Source: an uncultured Anaerolineales bacterium (GTDB lineage: Bacteria; Chloroflexota; Anaerolineae; B4-G1; SLSP01). From it: 64,000 bases of DNA. Below are positions 4,683 through 10,782 of the stretch, piece after piece. The notes beneath the pieces were generated by a model. The model ran no database searches and had not been told where the DNA came from. It worked only from the letters and a program-made list of their open reading frames with translations. How positions within the stretch are numbered: position 1 is the first letter of the stretch; each line of letters starts with the position of its first letter. The stretch covers positions 2,933 through 66,932 of the forward strand of contig CAZTEO010000001.1 in the NCBI GenBank assembly GCA_964612845.1, given 5' to 3'. A program made the position numbers and the translations under genes.

Positions 4683-5816
4683 CTATGAAGCCCGGAACAC
4701 CCGTTCTGAACGTGCATTCTCCACGTGTCGTTCCAGAGCCAAATCAATCAACCAGCTCAATAAACGCTCATAAGGAACACCCGTAGCATCCCACAGCTTC
4801 GGATACATGCTGATCGAGGTGAAGCCCGGTATCGTGTTGATCTCGTTGAGATAGAGCTCGCCGGTCTCGCCGCTCAGCAGAAAGTCAACACGCGCCATAC
4901 CCGCACAGTCGATGGCTTTATAGGCTTGGATTGCCATCTTTCGTATCTGTGCAGTCAGTTCCTCACTCAAGGGCGCCGGTATCAGCAACTCCGAAGCATC
5001 TTCGCCCGTATCCAGATACTTGGCCTCGTAGCTGTAAAAATCGCGGCTGGGAATAATCTCCCCCGGCACAGAAGCCGATGGGGCGTCGTTCCCCAACACA
5101 CTCACCTCGATCTCGCGGGCCGCCGGTACAGCCTCTTCGACCAGCAAACGGCGGTCGTAGCGCGCGGCTTCATGCATACCGGCGCGCAACTCTTCCTGAT
5201 TAGTACACCTGCTGATGCCCACACTGGAACCCAAGTTCGCGGGTTTAGTAAAGAGTGGATAAGTCAATTCCGTCTCGATCGTGCGCAAGACGCTTTCCGG
5301 CTCCCGCTCCCACCAACGGCGGCTGCAATGCACATAGGGGAGGATCGGAAGCCCGACGTCATCACAAACGTGCTTGAAGATAATCTTATCCATGGCAACT
5401 GCTGACGCGACCACACCGGCGCCTACGTAGGCGACATCTGCCAGCTCTAACAGCCCCTGCACCGTGCCATCTTCGCCGAAAGTGCCGTGCAACACAGGAA
5501 AGACTACGTCCACGCGGGAGAGCATTGAAAGCTGCCCCGCCCGTTCATTTTGATGAGAGTGAATCTGGCTGAGACCACTATACGTAGGATCAGGCAGAAT
5601 GGCAGCCGGACGCGTTTCAGTAAAAGACTCGTCTTCCAACGCCCGCATCGGGTCCGTGCCCACGATCCAAGCCCCCTCCCGCGTAATACCCACCGGGATA
5701 ATCTCGAAGCGATCAGGGTCTAACGCACCTATGACCGAACGCGCCGAGACCAAACTGACCTCATGCTCGCCGGAACGCCCGCCAAACAATACCGCCACTT
5801 TAAGCTTATCTGACAT
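4683..5816 (-). CDS. ddl: D-alanine--D-alanine ligase
   Basis: KVAVLFGGRSGEHEVSLVSA N-terminus and an ATP-grasp C-terminus (YLNEINTIPGFT). Start moved to ATG 5816 (GAGGGGGG 5 nt upstream); the listed ORF starts at GTG 5822. Confidence 0.93.
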   Translation of the reverse strand: MSDKLKVAVLFGGRSGEHEVSLVSARSVIGALDPDRFEIIPVGITREGAWIVGTDPMRALEDESFTETRPAAILPDPTYSGLSQIHSHQNERAGQLSMLSRVDVVFPVLHGTFGEDGTVQGLLELADVAYVGAGVVASAVAMDKIIFKHVCDDVGLPILPYVHCSRRWWEREPESVLRTIETELTYPLFTKPANLGSSVGISRCTNQEELRAGMHEAARYDRRLLVEEAVPAAREIEVSVLGNDAPSASVPGEIIPSRDFYSYEAKYLDTGEDASELLIPAPLSEELTAQIRKMAIQAYKAIDCAGMARVDFLLSGETGELYLNEINTIPGFTSISMYPKLWDATGVPYERLLSWLIDLALERHVENARSERVFRAS

Positions 5817-5885
5817 CCACACCCCCCTCAGTATCGGATACTGCGTTTCTGACGTATACCGCCCGCTTCATGCTAGGCAGAATAA

Positions 5886-6791
5886 TCATGCAATCAGCTC
5901 AATCTCCGGCTCAAGCCACACGCCGAACTTGCGCTCGACCTCAGCCTGGACCCGCTGAATCAACGTCATGTAATCTTCTGCTGTCCCATCCGCTTCATTG
6001 ACAAAGAAATTCGCGTGGTGGGATGAAACCACGACGCCTCCCACACGCATGCCCTTCAGACCTGCCGCTTCAATAAGCCGACCCGCGTAATCTCCCGCTG
6101 GGTTCTTGAAGGTAGAGCCCAAGGTCCGACCCGGCGGTTGGGTATGGTGACGGCGCTCTGTATACTCCTGAGCCTTGGCCTGCAAATGCGCAGGATCTCT
6201 GGGGCGCAGTTGGAACGTCGCCCGTAGTACCACCCACGCCTCCCCAGCACCCTTTAGACGGCTGCATCGATAGCGAAAGTCAAACCAGTCTGGCCCAATG
6301 GTATGAATGTCATCATCTGGACCAAGCAAATCTGCAGAGAGCAAGGCTGTCGATATCTCACCACCAAAAGCACCGGCGTTGTTGATCACAGCGCCGCCCA
6401 CGGTGCCGGGCAAGCCAACCGCCCACGTCAGACCTCCCCAACCGCGCGCCACAGCCGCTCGCGCCACTTGAACCATCACAGCACCAGATTCCGCGCAAAT
6501 ACGGTAATTATCGGCAAACTGGACCTCGCGCGCGTGATTAAGGATCACCACGCCATGCAGACCCCGATCCGAGACCAGGCAGTTAGAAAGTCCACCAAAT
6601 ACTTTGTAAGGCAATCGTAACGCACGGCTTTCAATCACAGCCCGCTGAATATCGGAGGCGGAGCGAGCGACGACTAAGACATCGGCAGGGCCGCCCACGC
6701 CCGCAGCGGAGTACTGCGCCAGCGCGGCATCACGCTGGGCGATGTCGCCCAAGCGCTCCACCAGTTGAGCCAGCCGTGTCTCGTAATCCAT
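5886..6791 (-). CDS. murB: UDP-N-acetylenolpyruvoylglucosamine reductase
   Basis: FAD-binding PCMH-type N-terminus (FGGLSNCLV) and a C-terminal GSTFKNP motif. The ATG at 6791 overlaps the TGA of the upstream small ORF (TGATG). Confidence 0.92.
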   Translation of the reverse strand: MDYETRLAQLVERLGDIAQRDAALAQYSAAGVGGPADVLVVARSASDIQRAVIESRALRLPYKVFGGLSNCLVSDRGLHGVVILNHAREVQFADNYRICAESGAVMVQVARAAVARGWGGLTWAVGLPGTVGGAVINNAGAFGGEISTALLSADLLGPDDDIHTIGPDWFDFRYRCSRLKGAGEAWVVLRATFQLRPRDPAHLQAKAQEYTERRHHTQPPGRTLGSTFKNPAGDYAGRLIEAAGLKGMRVGGVVVSSHHANFFVNEADGTAEDYMTLIQRVQAEVERKFGVWLEPEIELIA

Positions 6792-6946
6792 CAACTTTGC
6801 TTGCGTTTCGCATCCTTTGAGCGCATCTCGCGTTCGACCAGCTCCATCTTGAACTCCATGGTCGCCGAGCGATATGCCCGCTTCTTGGCCCGTTTCCGTC
6901 CTTTAACGCCGGTGGCACGTTTGAACAATTTCGCCAGTCGTGTCAT
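6791..6946 (-). CDS. unlisted 51-aa highly basic small protein, translationally coupled murC -> ORF -> murB
   Basis: Hand translation: MTRLAKLFKRATGVKGRKRAKKRAYRSATMEFKMELVEREMRSKDAKRKQS*. GAGGAG lies 8 nt upstream. Its ATG overlaps the murC stop (ATGA) and its TGA overlaps the murB ATG (TGATG). It is below the 60-aa cutoff of the ORF track. Confidence 0.5.
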   Translation of the reverse strand: MTRLAKLFKRATGVKGRKRAKKRAYRSATMEFKMELVEREMRSKDAKRKQS

Positions 6947-8349
6947 GGGGATGTCTCCTCAGCTTGTAAAGCGTCTAACAGCTGCTCGCCGACTACGTAC
7001 TCGGTGCCAGCCCCCATCAGCAGAATCACGTCGCCCGATTCGACCTCCGCCAGGAGCTGCGCCACCGCATCATCCAGCGAGGCTGCGGCGCTGACGTTGG
7101 GATGCTCCAGTGCAGCCACCAGACCCTGCTGATCAATGCTCCCATCATCTATCTCACGCGCTGCGTAAATCGGCAGGACGAGCACACGGTCCGCGCCTTG
7201 GAAAGCGCAGAGGAAATCGTCCCACAACGCCTTGATCCGGCTAAACGTGTGAGGCTGCCAGACGGCGAGCAGTCGCCGCTCAGGATAACGCTGCTGGGCG
7301 GCCTGCAACAACGCGCGAATCTGGGTGGGATGGTGCGCATAATCGTCGATAACGGTGACGCCCTGCACTTCGCCCAACACCTCAAAGCGCCGCGCCGTAC
7401 CGGAGAAATGCTCCAATGCAGCCTTAGCCGTCTCCAGAGAGACTCCACATTCACCCACCGCAACTGCTAAGGCCGCCAGGGCATTCTCCGCGTTATGATC
7501 GCCGGGAATAGATAAGTTTATCTCGCCCAGCCGCACATTTTCCCGCAGCACATCGAAGGTAACGCCGCCCCGTGCATTAGGTCGCACGTCTATGGCACGC
7601 CAGGCCAATCCCTTGCCAGGGCGTAGACCGTACAAGACCAGGTGACCGCCGTTGGCGTGGTAAGATGCCGCCACGGCGTGGGCGACTTCGTCATCGTTAC
7701 AGGCGACCAACGTGCCATCGTCACGGATCTGATCCACAAAATCCCCAAAAGCCAGACGCAGGAACCGAGGGCTGGGGAAACAGTCCGGGTGATCGTACTC
7801 AATGTTGGTCACGACAGCAATGTAGGGTTCTAGCGCCAGAAATGTGTTCTGGTACTCATCGGCTTCAATGACGAAGTAGGATCCTGCACCGGCCTGGGCA
7901 TTCGTCCCCAAGCTCTCCACAACCCCACCCACGATGTACGTCGGATCGTGCCCCGCCTCCAGCAGGATGGACGTGATCATACCGGTGACCGTGGTTTTAC
8001 CGTGGGCCCCCGCCACCGCGATAACGTCGTGTTCGGCGGTCAGCAGCGGCAGGAACTCGGGACGCCGCATCACAGGAATATCCTGCTGCCCTGCGGCAAC
8101 CAGCTCCACGTTGTCATCGGGCACCGCGGACGAAGCCAACACCAGATCGGCGCCAGCGACGTTTGCCGCCACATGTCCGATGCAAACCGGAATGCCCTCA
8201 GCGCGCAGATCCGCCACCAGCCGGCCCAGCTTCTGATCGGAGCCGCGCACATCGACACCACGCCCCTTCAACACGCGCGCGATAGCCGACATTCCAGCCC
8301 CGCCGATCCCAACGATATACACTTGCGTCAATTCTGTTAAATTTTTCAC
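6943..8349 (-). CDS. murC: UDP-N-acetylmuramate--L-alanine ligase
   Basis: VYIVGIGGAGMSAIA and the Mur-ligase P-loop GAHGKTTVTGM. Start set at GTG 8349 (VKNLTELTQ...), which gives the usual short N-terminus. The listed ORF start at 8478 would overlap the upstream gene by 119 nt. Confidence 0.93.
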   Translation of the reverse strand: MKNLTELTQVYIVGIGGAGMSAIARVLKGRGVDVRGSDQKLGRLVADLRAEGIPVCIGHVAANVAGADLVLASSAVPDDNVELVAAGQQDIPVMRRPEFLPLLTAEHDVIAVAGAHGKTTVTGMITSILLEAGHDPTYIVGGVVESLGTNAQAGAGSYFVIEADEYQNTFLALEPYIAVVTNIEYDHPDCFPSPRFLRLAFGDFVDQIRDDGTLVACNDDEVAHAVAASYHANGGHLVLYGLRPGKGLAWRAIDVRPNARGGVTFDVLRENVRLGEINLSIPGDHNAENALAALAVAVGECGVSLETAKAALEHFSGTARRFEVLGEVQGVTVIDDYAHHPTQIRALLQAAQQRYPERRLLAVWQPHTFSRIKALWDDFLCAFQGADRVLVLPIYAAREIDDGSIDQQGLVAALEHPNVSAAASLDDAVAQLLAEVESGDVILLMGAGTEYVVGEQLLDALQAEETSP

Positions 8350-8359
8350 GTCCTTGCCT

Positions 8360-9034
8360 TCACAATCCAATAGCTCGCAACAAACCACTCCAGGTCCAAC
8401 TACAGTTCTGACGATGAGATATCGATACCAGCATGATCTCCTTGCCACCCACACTGATCTGCCTCGTCTGCTCTGCACGAGATTTGGAATGGTTTACCGG
8501 AACCGCTATCCCTATAATTTTATGGTTGATTATTCCTTCACATACTGCATCCAAGAGTTCCTGTAAGCATCCATGAATTTGATCCTCTTCTTCGTTCTCC
8601 TGTTTACAAAGCATCTGCATTCCTTGTTCTAGTTGCTCAAATTTGTCATCTACTTGATCCCGATTTACCAAAGTATCTCGCAACTCAAGGAAGACTAAAC
8701 AGCAATCCCCATCGAACCAGCCCATAACCAGGTAATCCGACTTACGTCCTTCCCACCGAGCATCCACCAATGAAATCTTGTCAGCGAAACGGTCGAACTC
8801 ACATATACGTAGAGGCATAGTATCTGCTTCTAACGTCAGCCAATAATAATGCGTTGGCTCACCACCCGGTAATTTTTTAGTTCCTTCATACAACAGACGT
8901 GATTTTTCGATAGCCACCCGACTACAACAATCCATTAATGCAGTAGCTTCTACAGGACAATCTATTCTCTCTGGTTGCTGGGGTAGACTCTCTCCCTGAC
9001 AACGGCTTTCGGGGATATTATTGCGTCTGGGCAT
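8360..9034 (-). CDS. hypothetical Cys-rich protein, partner of the upstream ATPase (no family recognised)
   Basis: 224 aa with 11 Cys. GGGAG lies 9 nt upstream of the ATG, which is 6 nt after the ATPase stop. Its stop is 10 nt before the murC GTG. Low GC. Acidic clusters: WLTLEADT...WFDGDCC and SDYLVMGW...LVFLELRD. Confidence 0.6.
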   Translation of the reverse strand: MPRRNNIPESRCQGESLPQQPERIDCPVEATALMDCCSRVAIEKSRLLYEGTKKLPGGEPTHYYWLTLEADTMPLRICEFDRFADKISLVDARWEGRKSDYLVMGWFDGDCCLVFLELRDTLVNRDQVDDKFEQLEQGMQMLCKQENEEEDQIHGCLQELLDAVCEGIINHKIIGIAVPVNHSKSRAEQTRQISVGGKEIMLVSISHRQNCSWTWSGLLRAIGL

Positions 9035-9040
9035 ACAATT

Positions 9041-10246
9041 TCACTCCCACAATGTGCCGTAGGTAGCAAGCCGATTGTACTCTGTCTCCAAATCCCCCAG
9101 CACTTCACCGAGACGCGATTCATCTATCTCTCCTGAGTCAAGTTTGATATTCTGCAACCTGCCTTCGTGAAGCATATAAGCTACAACCTTTTCCGGGTTC
9201 AACTGCACCTCAGCTTCAGGAACACGCTCTAATCCCTCTTTTTCTGCCAACTTCTTATATGCTAATATAAGATTATTCAAAGCATACATTACCGTTAGCG
9301 AGTGCGTAGTGATCGTGACGTAGAAACCTTGATTCACAAGATAGGCCAGAATCTTGACCATTGCCACTTGAGCATTAGGATGCAAATGGATCTCCGGTTC
9401 CTCCACATGTAGAAAGAAGGGTAGTTGAATCCGTCCATCACGAAGCCACGAAAACAGAACTTCTCCCAATAAAACCAAGGGCCAGTTCGCTTTCTGTCCC
9501 GAAGACGCCATGTCGATATCAACTAATTTCTCTTCGTGCTCACCTTGGAAAATCCACTTCCAGCGATCTCCCGCGCGCGCAACTTCGCCCCCCAGTTCAG
9601 GCCAAATATGATGATGAATCCAGGCACCTTCTAGCGTACCAGGCACACCATTCTCCCAACGCTGGCTAAAGACGTCACCGGCACTTTCAATGGCATCTGC
9701 AAAAAGTCGCAATGTGCTGGGAACTGGCAACAAGTCCCAAACGGAAGGGCCACGTGCATGGGAATAAAGCATCCGTTCAGCAGGCACAAAGAGCGCGCGT
9801 CCTGGCGGATAGATCGATTCTCCCTGGCGGATATCCGTGACAGTTTCACACAAGGATTTATATGCATTCACACGACGATTTCTAGTCTCCATGCTGAATC
9901 CTAGGGTTTTCCGTCCGCTTTCCACACCTTGATACTTCACTGCGGTGGAGGGATCTGCAAAAACAGCAAACGCCCGATCCCGACTACGCAGCTCATCCAA
10001 TATCCAACGGACTAGGTCTTTTTCCGAAACGGTTCGATCTCTCGCTTGAGCAAATGCATCATAATAGCGCACCAGATACAGGAGATCGCGGAAGAAGTAC
10101 AAGACCTGGCTAAGCAAGGATTTACCCGTGCCTTGACCACCAATCAAAACCGTTAACGGACGTATTTCAATTCTATTAGTCTCTTGCAACGGCCCCAATT
10201 TCCCACGTTTAATCTGAATTGTCTCAAACCGTTTCGATTTCATCAT
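9041..10246 (-). CDS. ABC/SMC-like AAA_21/AAA_15-type ATPase (OLD/AriA/PtuA-class ATPase fold)
   Basis: Walker A LIGGQGTGKSLL, signature-like MASSGQKANWPL, Walker B/D-loop FFLHVEEPEIHLHP and H-loop ITTHS. About 200 aa are inserted between Walker A and the signature. GAGGT overlaps the stop of the upstream gene. Low GC. Confidence 0.8.
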   Translation of the reverse strand: MMKSKRFETIQIKRGKLGPLQETNRIEIRPLTVLIGGQGTGKSLLSQVLYFFRDLLYLVRYYDAFAQARDRTVSEKDLVRWILDELRSRDRAFAVFADPSTAVKYQGVESGRKTLGFSMETRNRRVNAYKSLCETVTDIRQGESIYPPGRALFVPAERMLYSHARGPSVWDLLPVPSTLRLFADAIESAGDVFSQRWENGVPGTLEGAWIHHHIWPELGGEVARAGDRWKWIFQGEHEEKLVDIDMASSGQKANWPLVLLGEVLFSWLRDGRIQLPFFLHVEEPEIHLHPNAQVAMVKILAYLVNQGFYVTITTHSLTVMYALNNLILAYKKLAEKEGLERVPEAEVQLNPEKVVAYMLHEGRLQNIKLDSGEIDESRLGEVLGDLETEYNRLATYGTLWE

Positions 10247-10251
10247 TTACC

Positions 10252-10782
10252 TCACACAAAGACAATCAGGACAAAGGCGAAGGCCACCGCCACGCCAACA
10301 AAGAGAGGCGGACCAGCCAGCCATTCGGTTATCAAATTCTGCGAAAAGGTCAATGGGATGCTCTCCCCTGGCGCTGTGATTTTCCAGATGTTATAGCCAA
10401 GCTGTTCCAAAAATCCCCAGACCATGCCTACCACCAGACCGCCATTCAGAACACCCAGGAAAAAGCCCAATAGCGTATCCTGAAACTTATCCTTACGTGC
10501 TTTACCTCCCACGGCTGCGGAGATAACAGGCGTGGCATAACCAAAGATGACAATGGCGACGAATAGAATCATGCGCACATAAAACCAGGTCTCGGCTTCG
10601 TTCGCGGCCAGATTTTGCAGGGCCGAATCGACGCCCGGCACATACGCCCACAAAACAAACTCAATGAATCGCGCCAAGATAACGGCGAACGCGACCAAAA
10701 GCTCCTTCGCCCAGCCGCGAAGCGCCCCAATCAGCCCAAAAAGTAAGACCAGCCCAATGAAGACATTCTCCAAAGGTACCAT
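10252..10782 (-). CDS. CvpA-family (colicin V production-like) membrane protein
   Basis: 176 aa with 4-5 TM. LIGALRGWAKELLVAFAVILA and DTLLGFFLGVLNGGLVVG resemble E. coli CvpA (LIRGFVREALSL, DRVLGVCFGALRGVLIV). Its ATG directly abuts the murG stop. Confidence 0.6.
   Translation of the reverse strand: MVPLENVFIGLVLLFGLIGALRGWAKELLVAFAVILARFIEFVLWAYVPGVDSALQNLAANEAETWFYVRMILFVAIVIFGYATPVISAAVGGKARKDKFQDTLLGFFLGVLNGGLVVGMVWGFLEQLGYNIWKITAPGESIPLTFSQNLITEWLAGPPLFVGVAVAFAFVLIVFV

Follow-up and report, generated by a model that had tools for sequence, protein, structure and literature searches.

A probable ATPase–nuclease conflict module long resident in the dcw operon across a Chloroflexota clade

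We analyzed a stretch of 64,000 nucleotides (nt) from an uncultured Anaerolineales bacterium of the Chloroflexota (GenBank assembly GCA_964612845.1, contig CAZTEO010000001.1, positions 2,933 to 66,932 of the forward strand), referred to here as the window. Its minus strand carries a complete division and cell-wall (dcw) cluster in the order murF, mraY, murD, ftsW, murG, a cvpA-like gene, two extra genes, murC, murB, ddl, ftsQ, ftsA and ftsZ. The extra genes, between the cvpA-like gene and murC, encode a 401-residue ATPase of ABC/SMC type (9041..10246) and, after it, a 224-residue partner with 11 cysteines (8360..9034). We favor reading this cassette as a two-gene ATPase–nuclease conflict module of the Septu, PARIS and PD-T4-4 kind that is entrenched in the dcw operon. 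What sets it apart would be its long residence, promoter-less and probably co-transcribed, in this operon of a Chloroflexota clade. A preliminary description, made from the DNA letters of the window, had placed two co-oriented genes inside the dcw cluster and proposed a defence-like ATPase-plus-effector module. The two genes are borne out (10246–9041 and 9034–8360, both minus strand), and homology, fold, constant pairing, a patchy distribution and the exchange of parts all support such a module.

The ATPase and its predicted nuclease partner

The first gene encodes a member of the ABC/SMC-like AAA_15/AAA_21 ATPases, the clade of OLD, PtuA and AriA. It passes both Pfam cut-offs (AAA_15, 55 bits against 32.1; AAA_21, 37 bits against 27), has a PtuA-like fold and carries four conserved motifs, read from the translation and an alignment of 36 homologues. 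The Walker A motif or P-loop, IGGQGTGKS, spans residues 35–43 (10118..10144; minus strand, as for all features of the cassette and its anchors), with G36, Q38, G39, G41, K42 and S43 invariant among the homologues. An ABC signature-like ASSGQK follows at residues 247–252 (9491..9508), in a region where M246, A247, S248, G250 and Q251 are invariant. The Walker B and D-loop, HVEEPEIHLHP, occupy residues 280–290 (9377..9409; E282, E283, P284, E285, H287, L288, H289 and P290 invariant). The H-loop, TTHS, lies at residues 313–316 (9299..9310; T314, H315 and S316 invariant). All four motifs had been named in the preliminary description (the P-loop as GGQGTGKS, residues 36–43), and all are present. 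The last stretch, at about residues 326–401 (9041..9271), is a C-terminal extension made of a linker, a beta-hairpin and a terminal helix, and is a putative docking module. The 401 residues are counted from the first ATG; the database copy has 400 and begins at the second. More than 340 homologues of the ATPase were found, mostly 40–56% identical. The few with a named source bear the labels Anaerolineae, Thermoflexales, Myxococcota, Deltaproteobacteria or Ardenticatena.

Several defence models match the ATPase, each over part of its length. Its best PADLOC matches are PD-T4-4_A (1.1e-18), from a system reportedly described by Vassallo et al. in 2022, AriA (3.9e-17) and NsnB (1e-16), all of them local. 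The PADLOC candidates PDC-M56A and PDC-M47A (8e-15) and PDC-M29A (1.2e-13) also match it in part, and no curated NCBIfam model comes near its cut-off. The Walker B/D-loop region is the source of most hidden Markov model (HMM) matches to OLD, GajA, PtuA and AriA. A profile search of Protein Data Bank (PDB) sequences found PtuA, OLD, AriA, GajA and UvrA, only around the Walker B region. The AlphaFold2 model of the ATPase (pLDDT 89, pTM 0.90) was searched with Foldseek. PtuA chains from Septu and from retron Ec78/Eco7 lead the list (E about 1e-10, TM 0.46–0.52), and the heads of SMC and Rad50 come next.

The partner had at first been taken for an orphan with no recognizable effector signature, a view that no longer holds. 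The window partner has no match in Pfam, PADLOC, NCBIfam or PHROG, and its family profile returned only noise from PDB sequences. A word-indexed protein search found two clusters only, the partner itself and a relative of 79% identity, and a profile search run later on the word index likewise yielded few proteins. A full HMMER scan of 1.84 billion representative proteins recovered 30 partner clusters, and more distant relatives were found as open reading frames (ORFs) directly downstream of ATPase homologues. These proteins share a PD…E-x-K core, which in the subtype of the window reads D…E-x-R. The R-type, to which the window partner belongs, comprises proteins of about 205–230 residues with a Cys-rich N-terminal extension and a D…E-L-R signature. 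Two K-types have about 185–200 residues and an invariant P-D…E-x-K. BLASTP of the window partner against the K-type partner of comparison locus L011 was insignificant, and the homology is seen at the profile level only. There, hhalign joins R- and K-types with 97.3% probability (E 2e-11), aligning D100 to the aspartate of PD and ELR to ELK.

The predicted nuclease core (8633..8794) consists of D81 in helix 1, D100 at a strand start, E117-L-R119 in the next strand, and K131 and Q134 in the following helix. E117, R119, K131, Q134 and Y64 are invariant in 21 R-type sequences; D100 is kept in 20 of the 21, and position 81 is always D or E. In the AlphaFold2 model of the partner (pLDDT 85, pTM 0.85) a helix at 80–87 is followed by strands at 101–107 and 110–122, a helix at 125–143 and a strand at 171–183. 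As modelled, this order of elements fits a PD-(D/E)xK core. The top Foldseek matches are weak and are mostly PD-(D/E)xK enzymes (McrC, FokI, BamHI, EcoO109I, Hjc, DdmD and LmuA, with an Mrr-domain protein in BFVD). Members of the family match known models over the catalytic hairpin: SduA/DUF4263 (5.4e-6, for family member P0146), PDC-M47B (1.6e-4), PDC-M29B (4e-4) and HamA. The partner is very probably a divergent PD-(D/E)xK-fold protein. For the defence systems that join an ABC ATPase to a nuclease, it would be a previously undescribed effector family, one that Pfam, PADLOC and NCBIfam do not cover.

The Cys-rich extension covers about residues 1–58 (8861..9034) and is confined to the R-type; in the window partner, the hhalign match to the K-types begins at residue 65 (profile column 57). 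Within the extension, C12 is conserved in 81% of R-type sequences, C26 in 52% and C37 in 95%. Beyond it, conservation is 90% for C78, 76% for C111, and 67% for both C165 and C211. It is possible that the conserved cysteines form a metal site.

Every partner homologue found has an ATPase directly upstream, save two qualified cases. In L091 the partner ORF is in place behind the ATPase but was left uncalled, and in L094 the partner follows the ATPase after a gap of about 120 nt.

Module exchange and comparison with named defence systems

Two comparison loci provide a natural swap experiment. L011 and L095 share about 90% DNA identity across cvpA and the opening ~980 nt of the ATPase gene, to about codon 327, and 91% again from murC onward. 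Between these points the last ~75–80 ATPase codons and the whole partner are unrelated, being of K1-type in L011 and of R-type in L095. Across 17 loci the identity of the ATPase tail tracks the type of partner and not the identity of the ATPase body. L095 and L011 are 93% identical in the body and 30% in the tail; for L011 and L089 the figures are 41% and 55%. In PtuAB, PtuA's C-terminal extension binds the nuclease PtuB (PMC12819146). Because the tail swaps and covaries with the partner, as would befit an element like the PtuA extension, we infer that residues ~326–401 of the window ATPase dock the partner. Tail and partner would then have been exchanged in situ as one unit, as expected of an arms-race module, and the L011/L095 comparison would map the docking element without a structure.

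ATPases with R-type tails also occur in L013 (6001–7212), L014 and L019 (942–2174), with no detectable partner homologue downstream. Their tails are about 56% (L013) and 38% (L019) identical to that of the window. These ATPases may be orphaned, or their effector may have been replaced.

Septu consists of the ABC ATPase PtuA and the HNH nuclease PtuB, and PtuAB is also the effector of retron Ec78/Eco7. The window pair resembles Septu in its two-gene operon, where the ATPase gene precedes that of a smaller predicted nuclease, and PtuA chains are the best structural matches of its ATPase model. The exchange and covariation of tail and partner likewise recall the nuclease-binding extension of PtuA (PMC12819146). 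Unlike PtuB, however, the window partner is PD-(D/E)xK-like and not HNH. Neither it nor its relatives match PtuB or HNH models in PADLOC or Pfam, and its model shows an alpha/beta fold with a D…ExR hairpin. The ATPase has about 400 residues against about 550 in PtuA and lacks the long insertions of the latter, and the pair sits inside the dcw operon. PtuA models score the ATPase poorly, with 16.1 bits against an NCBIfam cut-off of 500 and a local PADLOC match of 9e-7.

PARIS pairs the ABC ATPase AriA with the Toprim nuclease AriB. The window pair is similar in setting an ABC ATPase beside a small predicted nuclease effector, and AriA is found both by HMM and in the PDB profile search. The best stretch of the AriA match, however, covers only residues 233–318 of the window ATPase. 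The partner has no AriB, Toprim or DUF4435 match in Pfam or PADLOC, its predicted fold is not that of AriB, and no Toprim enzymes are among its fold matches. In Gabija and the OLD class the ATPase is fused to a Toprim nuclease domain, giving proteins of about 550–680 residues. The window ATPase, in contrast, has 401 residues and no Toprim domain in its model, and the GajA and Old HMMs match only residues 276–333.

PD-T4-4 combines a P-loop NTPase with a PD-(D/E)XK nuclease (bioRxiv 10.1101/2025.07.10.664194). It thus resembles the window pair in its combination of NTPase and PD-(D/E)xK-type nuclease, and PD-T4-4_A is the best PADLOC match of the window ATPase. That match is nevertheless limited to residues 278–368, and PD-T4-4_B matches neither the window partner nor any of 26 scanned relatives. 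The two-gene PADLOC candidates PDC-M29 and PDC-M47 match the ATPase and relatives of the partner weakly. The window's own partner matches neither B model, though, and the matches are partial and far below the level of family members. No paper on PDC-M29 or PDC-M47 was found in the literature. Shedu SduA (DUF4263), HamA, McrC and Mrr share with the predicted core of the partner an acidic residue in helix 1, an aspartate where a strand begins and E-x-K/R in the strand that follows. They differ in that the window partner itself matches none of them significantly, has arginine for lysine together with an invariant K131, adds the Cys-rich extension and depends on a separate ABC ATPase. The pair is not PARIS, Septu, PD-T4-4 or Gabija, because in each case the defining partner or the model cut-off fails. 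In the PADLOC, Pfam, AlphaFold and Foldseek searches, as suggested in the preliminary description, neither protein qualifies as an already named system.

Occupancy and composition of the dcw site

The pair is tightly packed between its anchors. Spacers of 5 nt (cvpA to ATPase), 6 nt (ATPase to partner) and 10 nt (partner to murC) reproduce exactly those first described. The upstream anchor is the cvpA-like membrane protein gene (10252..10782; Pfam Colicin_V, 31.3 bits against a cut-off of 29.3), which lies between murG and murC, or between murG and the pair, in every fetched dcw locus readable there. The downstream anchor is murC (6943..8349, GTG start at 8349; orthologues 52–80% identical), which directly follows the pair, or cvpA where the pair is absent. 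The left junction (10247..10254) reads as the cvpA stop TGA and the 5-nt spacer with a Shine-Dalgarno-like GAGGT; the junction GTGTGA/GGT… is also kept in L001, L009 and L010. The right junction (8350..8359) is the 10-nt spacer from the partner stop to the murC GTG and has no terminator-like site. L011, L018 and L089 have overlapping start and stop codons. Promoter-like and terminator-like matches show no excess over shuffle expectation between 6800 and 12000, and none lies in the three spacers, in agreement with the earlier reading of these gaps as free of hairpins and terminators. The pair is probably co-transcribed with the dcw genes.

The same cvpA–murC junction holds the pair in at least 10 divergent Chloroflexota lineages, from metagenome-assembled genomes (MAGs) labelled Anaerolineae, Thermoflexia and Thermoflexales. 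In L001–L006, whose housekeeping proteins are about 80% identical to those of the window, the ATPase at the junction is 84% and the partner 79% identical. L095 (housekeeping 64–69%) carries an ATPase of 62% and a partner of 47% identity, and L011/L012 (55–85%) an ATPase of 56% with a K1-type partner. ATPases of 40%, 39% and 50% identity occupy the junction in L018 (housekeeping 47–69%), in L089/L090 (45–81%), and in L091, a Thermoflexales MAG, and L092 (45–61%). In L025 and L027 (cvpA 45–48% identical) the ATPase directly follows cvpA. The pair is absent from L008 (60–84%) and L010 (about 80%), where cvpA runs straight into murC. L009 (about 80%) retains a relic, the first 47 ATPase codons through Walker A, followed by a deletion that reaches murC. 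In all, the pair is present in 8 of 11 compared dcw loci and absent or deleted in three, including two of the four closest relatives. It is not a core dcw component, since L008 and L010 lack it and L009 keeps only the relic.

Carriers fall on all major branches of a MurG+CvpA+MurC tree, and a single ancient gain with three later losses would be the most economical history on these sequences. ATPase and host trees agree in placing the window with L001 and L011 with L095. The ATPase tree departs from the host tree for L018 and L089, which are more divergent than their hosts predict, and copies from outside dcw clusters (L013; L015, L087 and L093; L094) are interleaved. Between window and L001 the pair is 84% and 79% identical, and its neighbors murG, cvpA and murC are 79–81% identical. 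Because the same spot is occupied in at least 10 lineages, the pair appears to be an old, dispensable and still-shuffling resident, not a recent insertion. The horizontal insertion first proposed is at odds with this occupancy, with the L009 relic and with identity equal to that of the neighbors. It had also been reasoned that a pair carried by all related genomes, with host-like composition, would be an ancestral dcw component. The pair is indeed shared by many relatives, but it is neither universal (8 of 11) nor host-like in GC content.

L010 was considered as a second deletion scar, in which the final codons of the partner would survive. Fifteen of 16 nt there resemble the window junction of partner 3′ end and murC 5′ end, but an alignment with equal MurC N-terminal length is equally good. 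Among these loci, the L009 relic alone is secure as the trace of a deletion. In a paper on dcw and the Chloroflexi, a term search of the text gave no mention of Anaerolineae, cvpA or insertions.

The cassette is low in GC throughout its range. Its GC content of 0.469, against 0.593 for the window, is the lowest of all 1887-nt windows in the 64 kb and lies 3.5 standard deviations under the mean. The dip seen in the preliminary description is thus confirmed, and its hand counts (22, 25, 19 and 32 G+C per line, and 40 for the murC line) match exactly on recount. Low GC is often taken as a sign of recent arrival, and had here been read as pointing to horizontal acquisition. Every carrier lineage, however, shows a deficit of the pair against its flanks (0.03 to 0.19), and because the deficit recurs in all carriers, it does not date the acquisition. 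The assumption that low GC marks recent arrival is challenged by this persistence, and compositional detectors of horizontal transfer would misdate inserts of this kind.

We computed dN/dS, dS and the GC content of third codon positions (GC3) between window and L001. The ratio dN/dS is 0.13 for the ATPase and 0.19 for the partner, with 0.02–0.15 for the flanking dcw genes, and both genes are under purifying selection. Values of dS are 0.71 and 0.61, about half of those of the flanks (1.2–3.0). From window to L001, GC3 goes from 0.47 to 0.48 in the ATPase and from 0.41 to 0.40 in the partner, and from about 0.65 to about 0.78 in the flanks. Flank GC3 differs by 0.03–0.17 (mostly about 0.10–0.15), while the pair stays at 0.40–0.48. 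Nucleotide identity between window 8360–10246 and L001 7568–9454 peaks on the cassette at 0.78–0.88, decays into cvpA and murC, and is about 0.73 elsewhere. The constant low GC3 may reflect constrained synonymous sites. Alternatively, the cassette may be replaced periodically from lower-GC donors through recombination in the conserved flanks.

The pair is also found outside dcw clusters, in delta-proteobacterial and probably cyanobacterial contigs among others. In L096 an R-type pair stands immediately ahead of a bona fide HEC-01 A+B candidate defence pair (6e-136 and 3e-68), and in L087 a restriction-modification (R-M) system lies near the pair. The L096 stretch (5773–9401) sets two ATPase-plus-small-protein systems in tandem, on a contig that carries XisI genes. 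L087 (4784–6875) and L093 (5001–7061), both Ardenticatena-like, show a second conserved operonic home. The order there is an asnS/aspS-type tRNA synthetase gene, ATPase, K2-type partner, a small membrane protein and lutA-lutB, with gaps of a few nt.

Readings of the cassette and further observations in dcw clusters

The signs that place the cassette among anti-phage systems are indirect: the defence-ATPase homology, the adjacency to HEC-01 and R-M systems elsewhere, the patchy presence and the module swapping. By analogy, the pair most likely works like Septu, with a PD-(D/E)xK-type nuclease replacing HNH. The ATPase would oligomerize, hold the nuclease through its C-terminal extension and keep it inactive. 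A phage-derived cue or a change of nucleotide state would then release or activate the nuclease, which would cut DNA or tRNA and stop the infection or the cell. With neither a promoter nor a terminator to itself, the cassette would be read through with the mur and fts genes. Where an insert is packed so tightly into an essential operon, only a near-precise deletion can take it out, and it may for that reason reside there for long. Defence genes are thought to reside in mobile islands of fast turnover. A defence-type pair long resident in a highly conserved operon across deep divergence would challenge that assumption, and immune genes may go unnoticed in essential operons.

Several points weigh against this reading. 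The anti-phage role and nuclease activity of the family are predictions from sequence, models and analogy. Through deep divergence the pair has kept one position within an essential operon, which is unusual for defence genes and could point to a housekeeping link. No full-length relatives of the family were found in IMG/VR viral contigs. The cassette has no mobile-element hallmarks: a search around it for terminal direct or inverted repeats gave only short matches at chance level, and no integrase lies at the site. Neither tRNA nor Rfam features occur in the window. Co-transcription is deduced from gene packing and the signal scan. The window partner itself has no significant HMM or fold match, with best Foldseek E values of 0.054 (PDB) and 0.004 (BFVD) and TM of 0.18–0.28. 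The canonical lysine of E-x-K is arginine in the R-type, so catalysis is not assured, and allele P0002 of the L001 lineage carries D100N. The lysine lost from the motif could be made good by K131, which is invariant on the helix that follows. D100N was considered as catalytic decay and rejected, as its cluster mates P0161–P0163 keep the aspartate.

Four other explanations were weighed against a conflict module. The pair could be a selfish addiction module of toxin-antitoxin (TA) type, an unlikely alternative in which the nuclease is the toxin and the ATPase its neutralizer. Such a module would bring no benefit against phage and would persist by punishing its own loss in an essential operon. 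AAA_21 is annotated as an AbiEii or type IV TA-like domain, the two genes are tightly coupled and always paired, and the dcw clusters of L091 and L092 have also gathered PIN/antitoxin pairs and a PDDEXK_3 gene. Loss is tolerated, however, as clean losses occur in close relatives (the L009 relic, L010 and L008), and in-situ effector exchange is more typical of arms-race diversification. The boundary between TA and abortive infection is moreover blurred, so the two explanations overlap. It is less probable again that the pair is a lineage-specific housekeeping part of division or chromosome handling, in which DNA is processed or cleared in time with septation by an SMC/Rad50-like ATPase together with a nuclease. 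The fixed dcw place would then be explained, including a junction shared by at least 10 lineages that are no more than 45–80% identical in their housekeeping proteins. Purifying selection as strong as on the neighbors, the SMC and Rad50 heads among the fold matches, and a low GC3 that stays constant while host GC3 drifts would also fit. A core machine is nonetheless hard to reconcile with absence or deletion in 3 of 11 dcw loci, two of them among the four closest relatives. The pair occurs in unrelated contexts (asnS-lut, R-M, HEC-01, delta-proteobacterial and probably cyanobacterial contigs), its ATPase lacks a coiled coil, and swapping of effector modules fits conflict systems better.

The remaining two explanations are far less credible. 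If a foreign low-GC island had recently entered the dcw operon of this genome alone by horizontal transfer, the sharp dip in GC, the deepest of the window, would be accounted for, as would a GC3 of 0.41–0.47 against 0.60–0.71 in the neighboring genes. We consider such a recent insertion very improbable, as the synteny data contradict it. Many relatives have this site occupied, and for window/L001 and L011/L095 the ATPase tree is largely host-congruent. Identity between window and L001 equals that of the flanks, a relic persists in L009, and all carriers share the GC deficit. A decaying, functionless remnant is hardly to be entertained at all, even with arginine in place of the canonical catalytic lysine, D100N in one allele and loss of the pair in some relatives. 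The selection analysis contradicts it, with dN/dS of 0.13 and 0.19 over about 20% amino-acid divergence and intact ORFs in all carriers. E117, R119, K131 and Q134 are invariant in the 21 R-type sequences, and close cluster mates of the D100N allele keep the aspartate.

A conflict module might also be functionally coupled to the operon that hosts it, an improbable extension in which an ATPase-controlled nuclease is kept in fixed stoichiometry with the Mur and Fts proteins. If so, infection or damage to wall synthesis or division would be the signal, or firing of the nuclease would be coupled to the division cycle. Cell division would then have a defence or checkpoint system wired to it across a Chloroflexota clade, and the held-down GC3 would be a means of expression control.

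Other features of the dcw clusters were observed along the way. Further small inserts occur in L091 (8423–9104 and 10185–10634) and its close relative L092 (3606–3884 and 9916–10329). They comprise PIN/antitoxin-like pairs, a UPF0175 gene and a PDDEXK_3 gene between murB and ddl. The dcw operon of Chloroflexota seems to tolerate selfish or defence-type insertions. In L002 (12681–16860), a metagenomic contig from the lineage of L001, murC and a short murB-like fragment are followed by a murA-like EPSP_synthase gene and a MalT-like TPR protein, with no intact murB-ddl; this order is either a rearrangement or an assembly join. Finally, a very basic micro-ORF of 51 residues lies between murC and murB in the window (6791–6946, minus strand), overlapping both gene ends: MTRLAKLFKRATGVKGRKRAKKRAYRSATMEFKMELVEREMRSKDAKRKQS. 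Its counterparts in L001 (10865–11023) and L089 (7968–8111), both translated, are clearly similar to it, and ORFs of 46–52 residues are called at the murC–murB position in L001–L004, L089–L092 and others.

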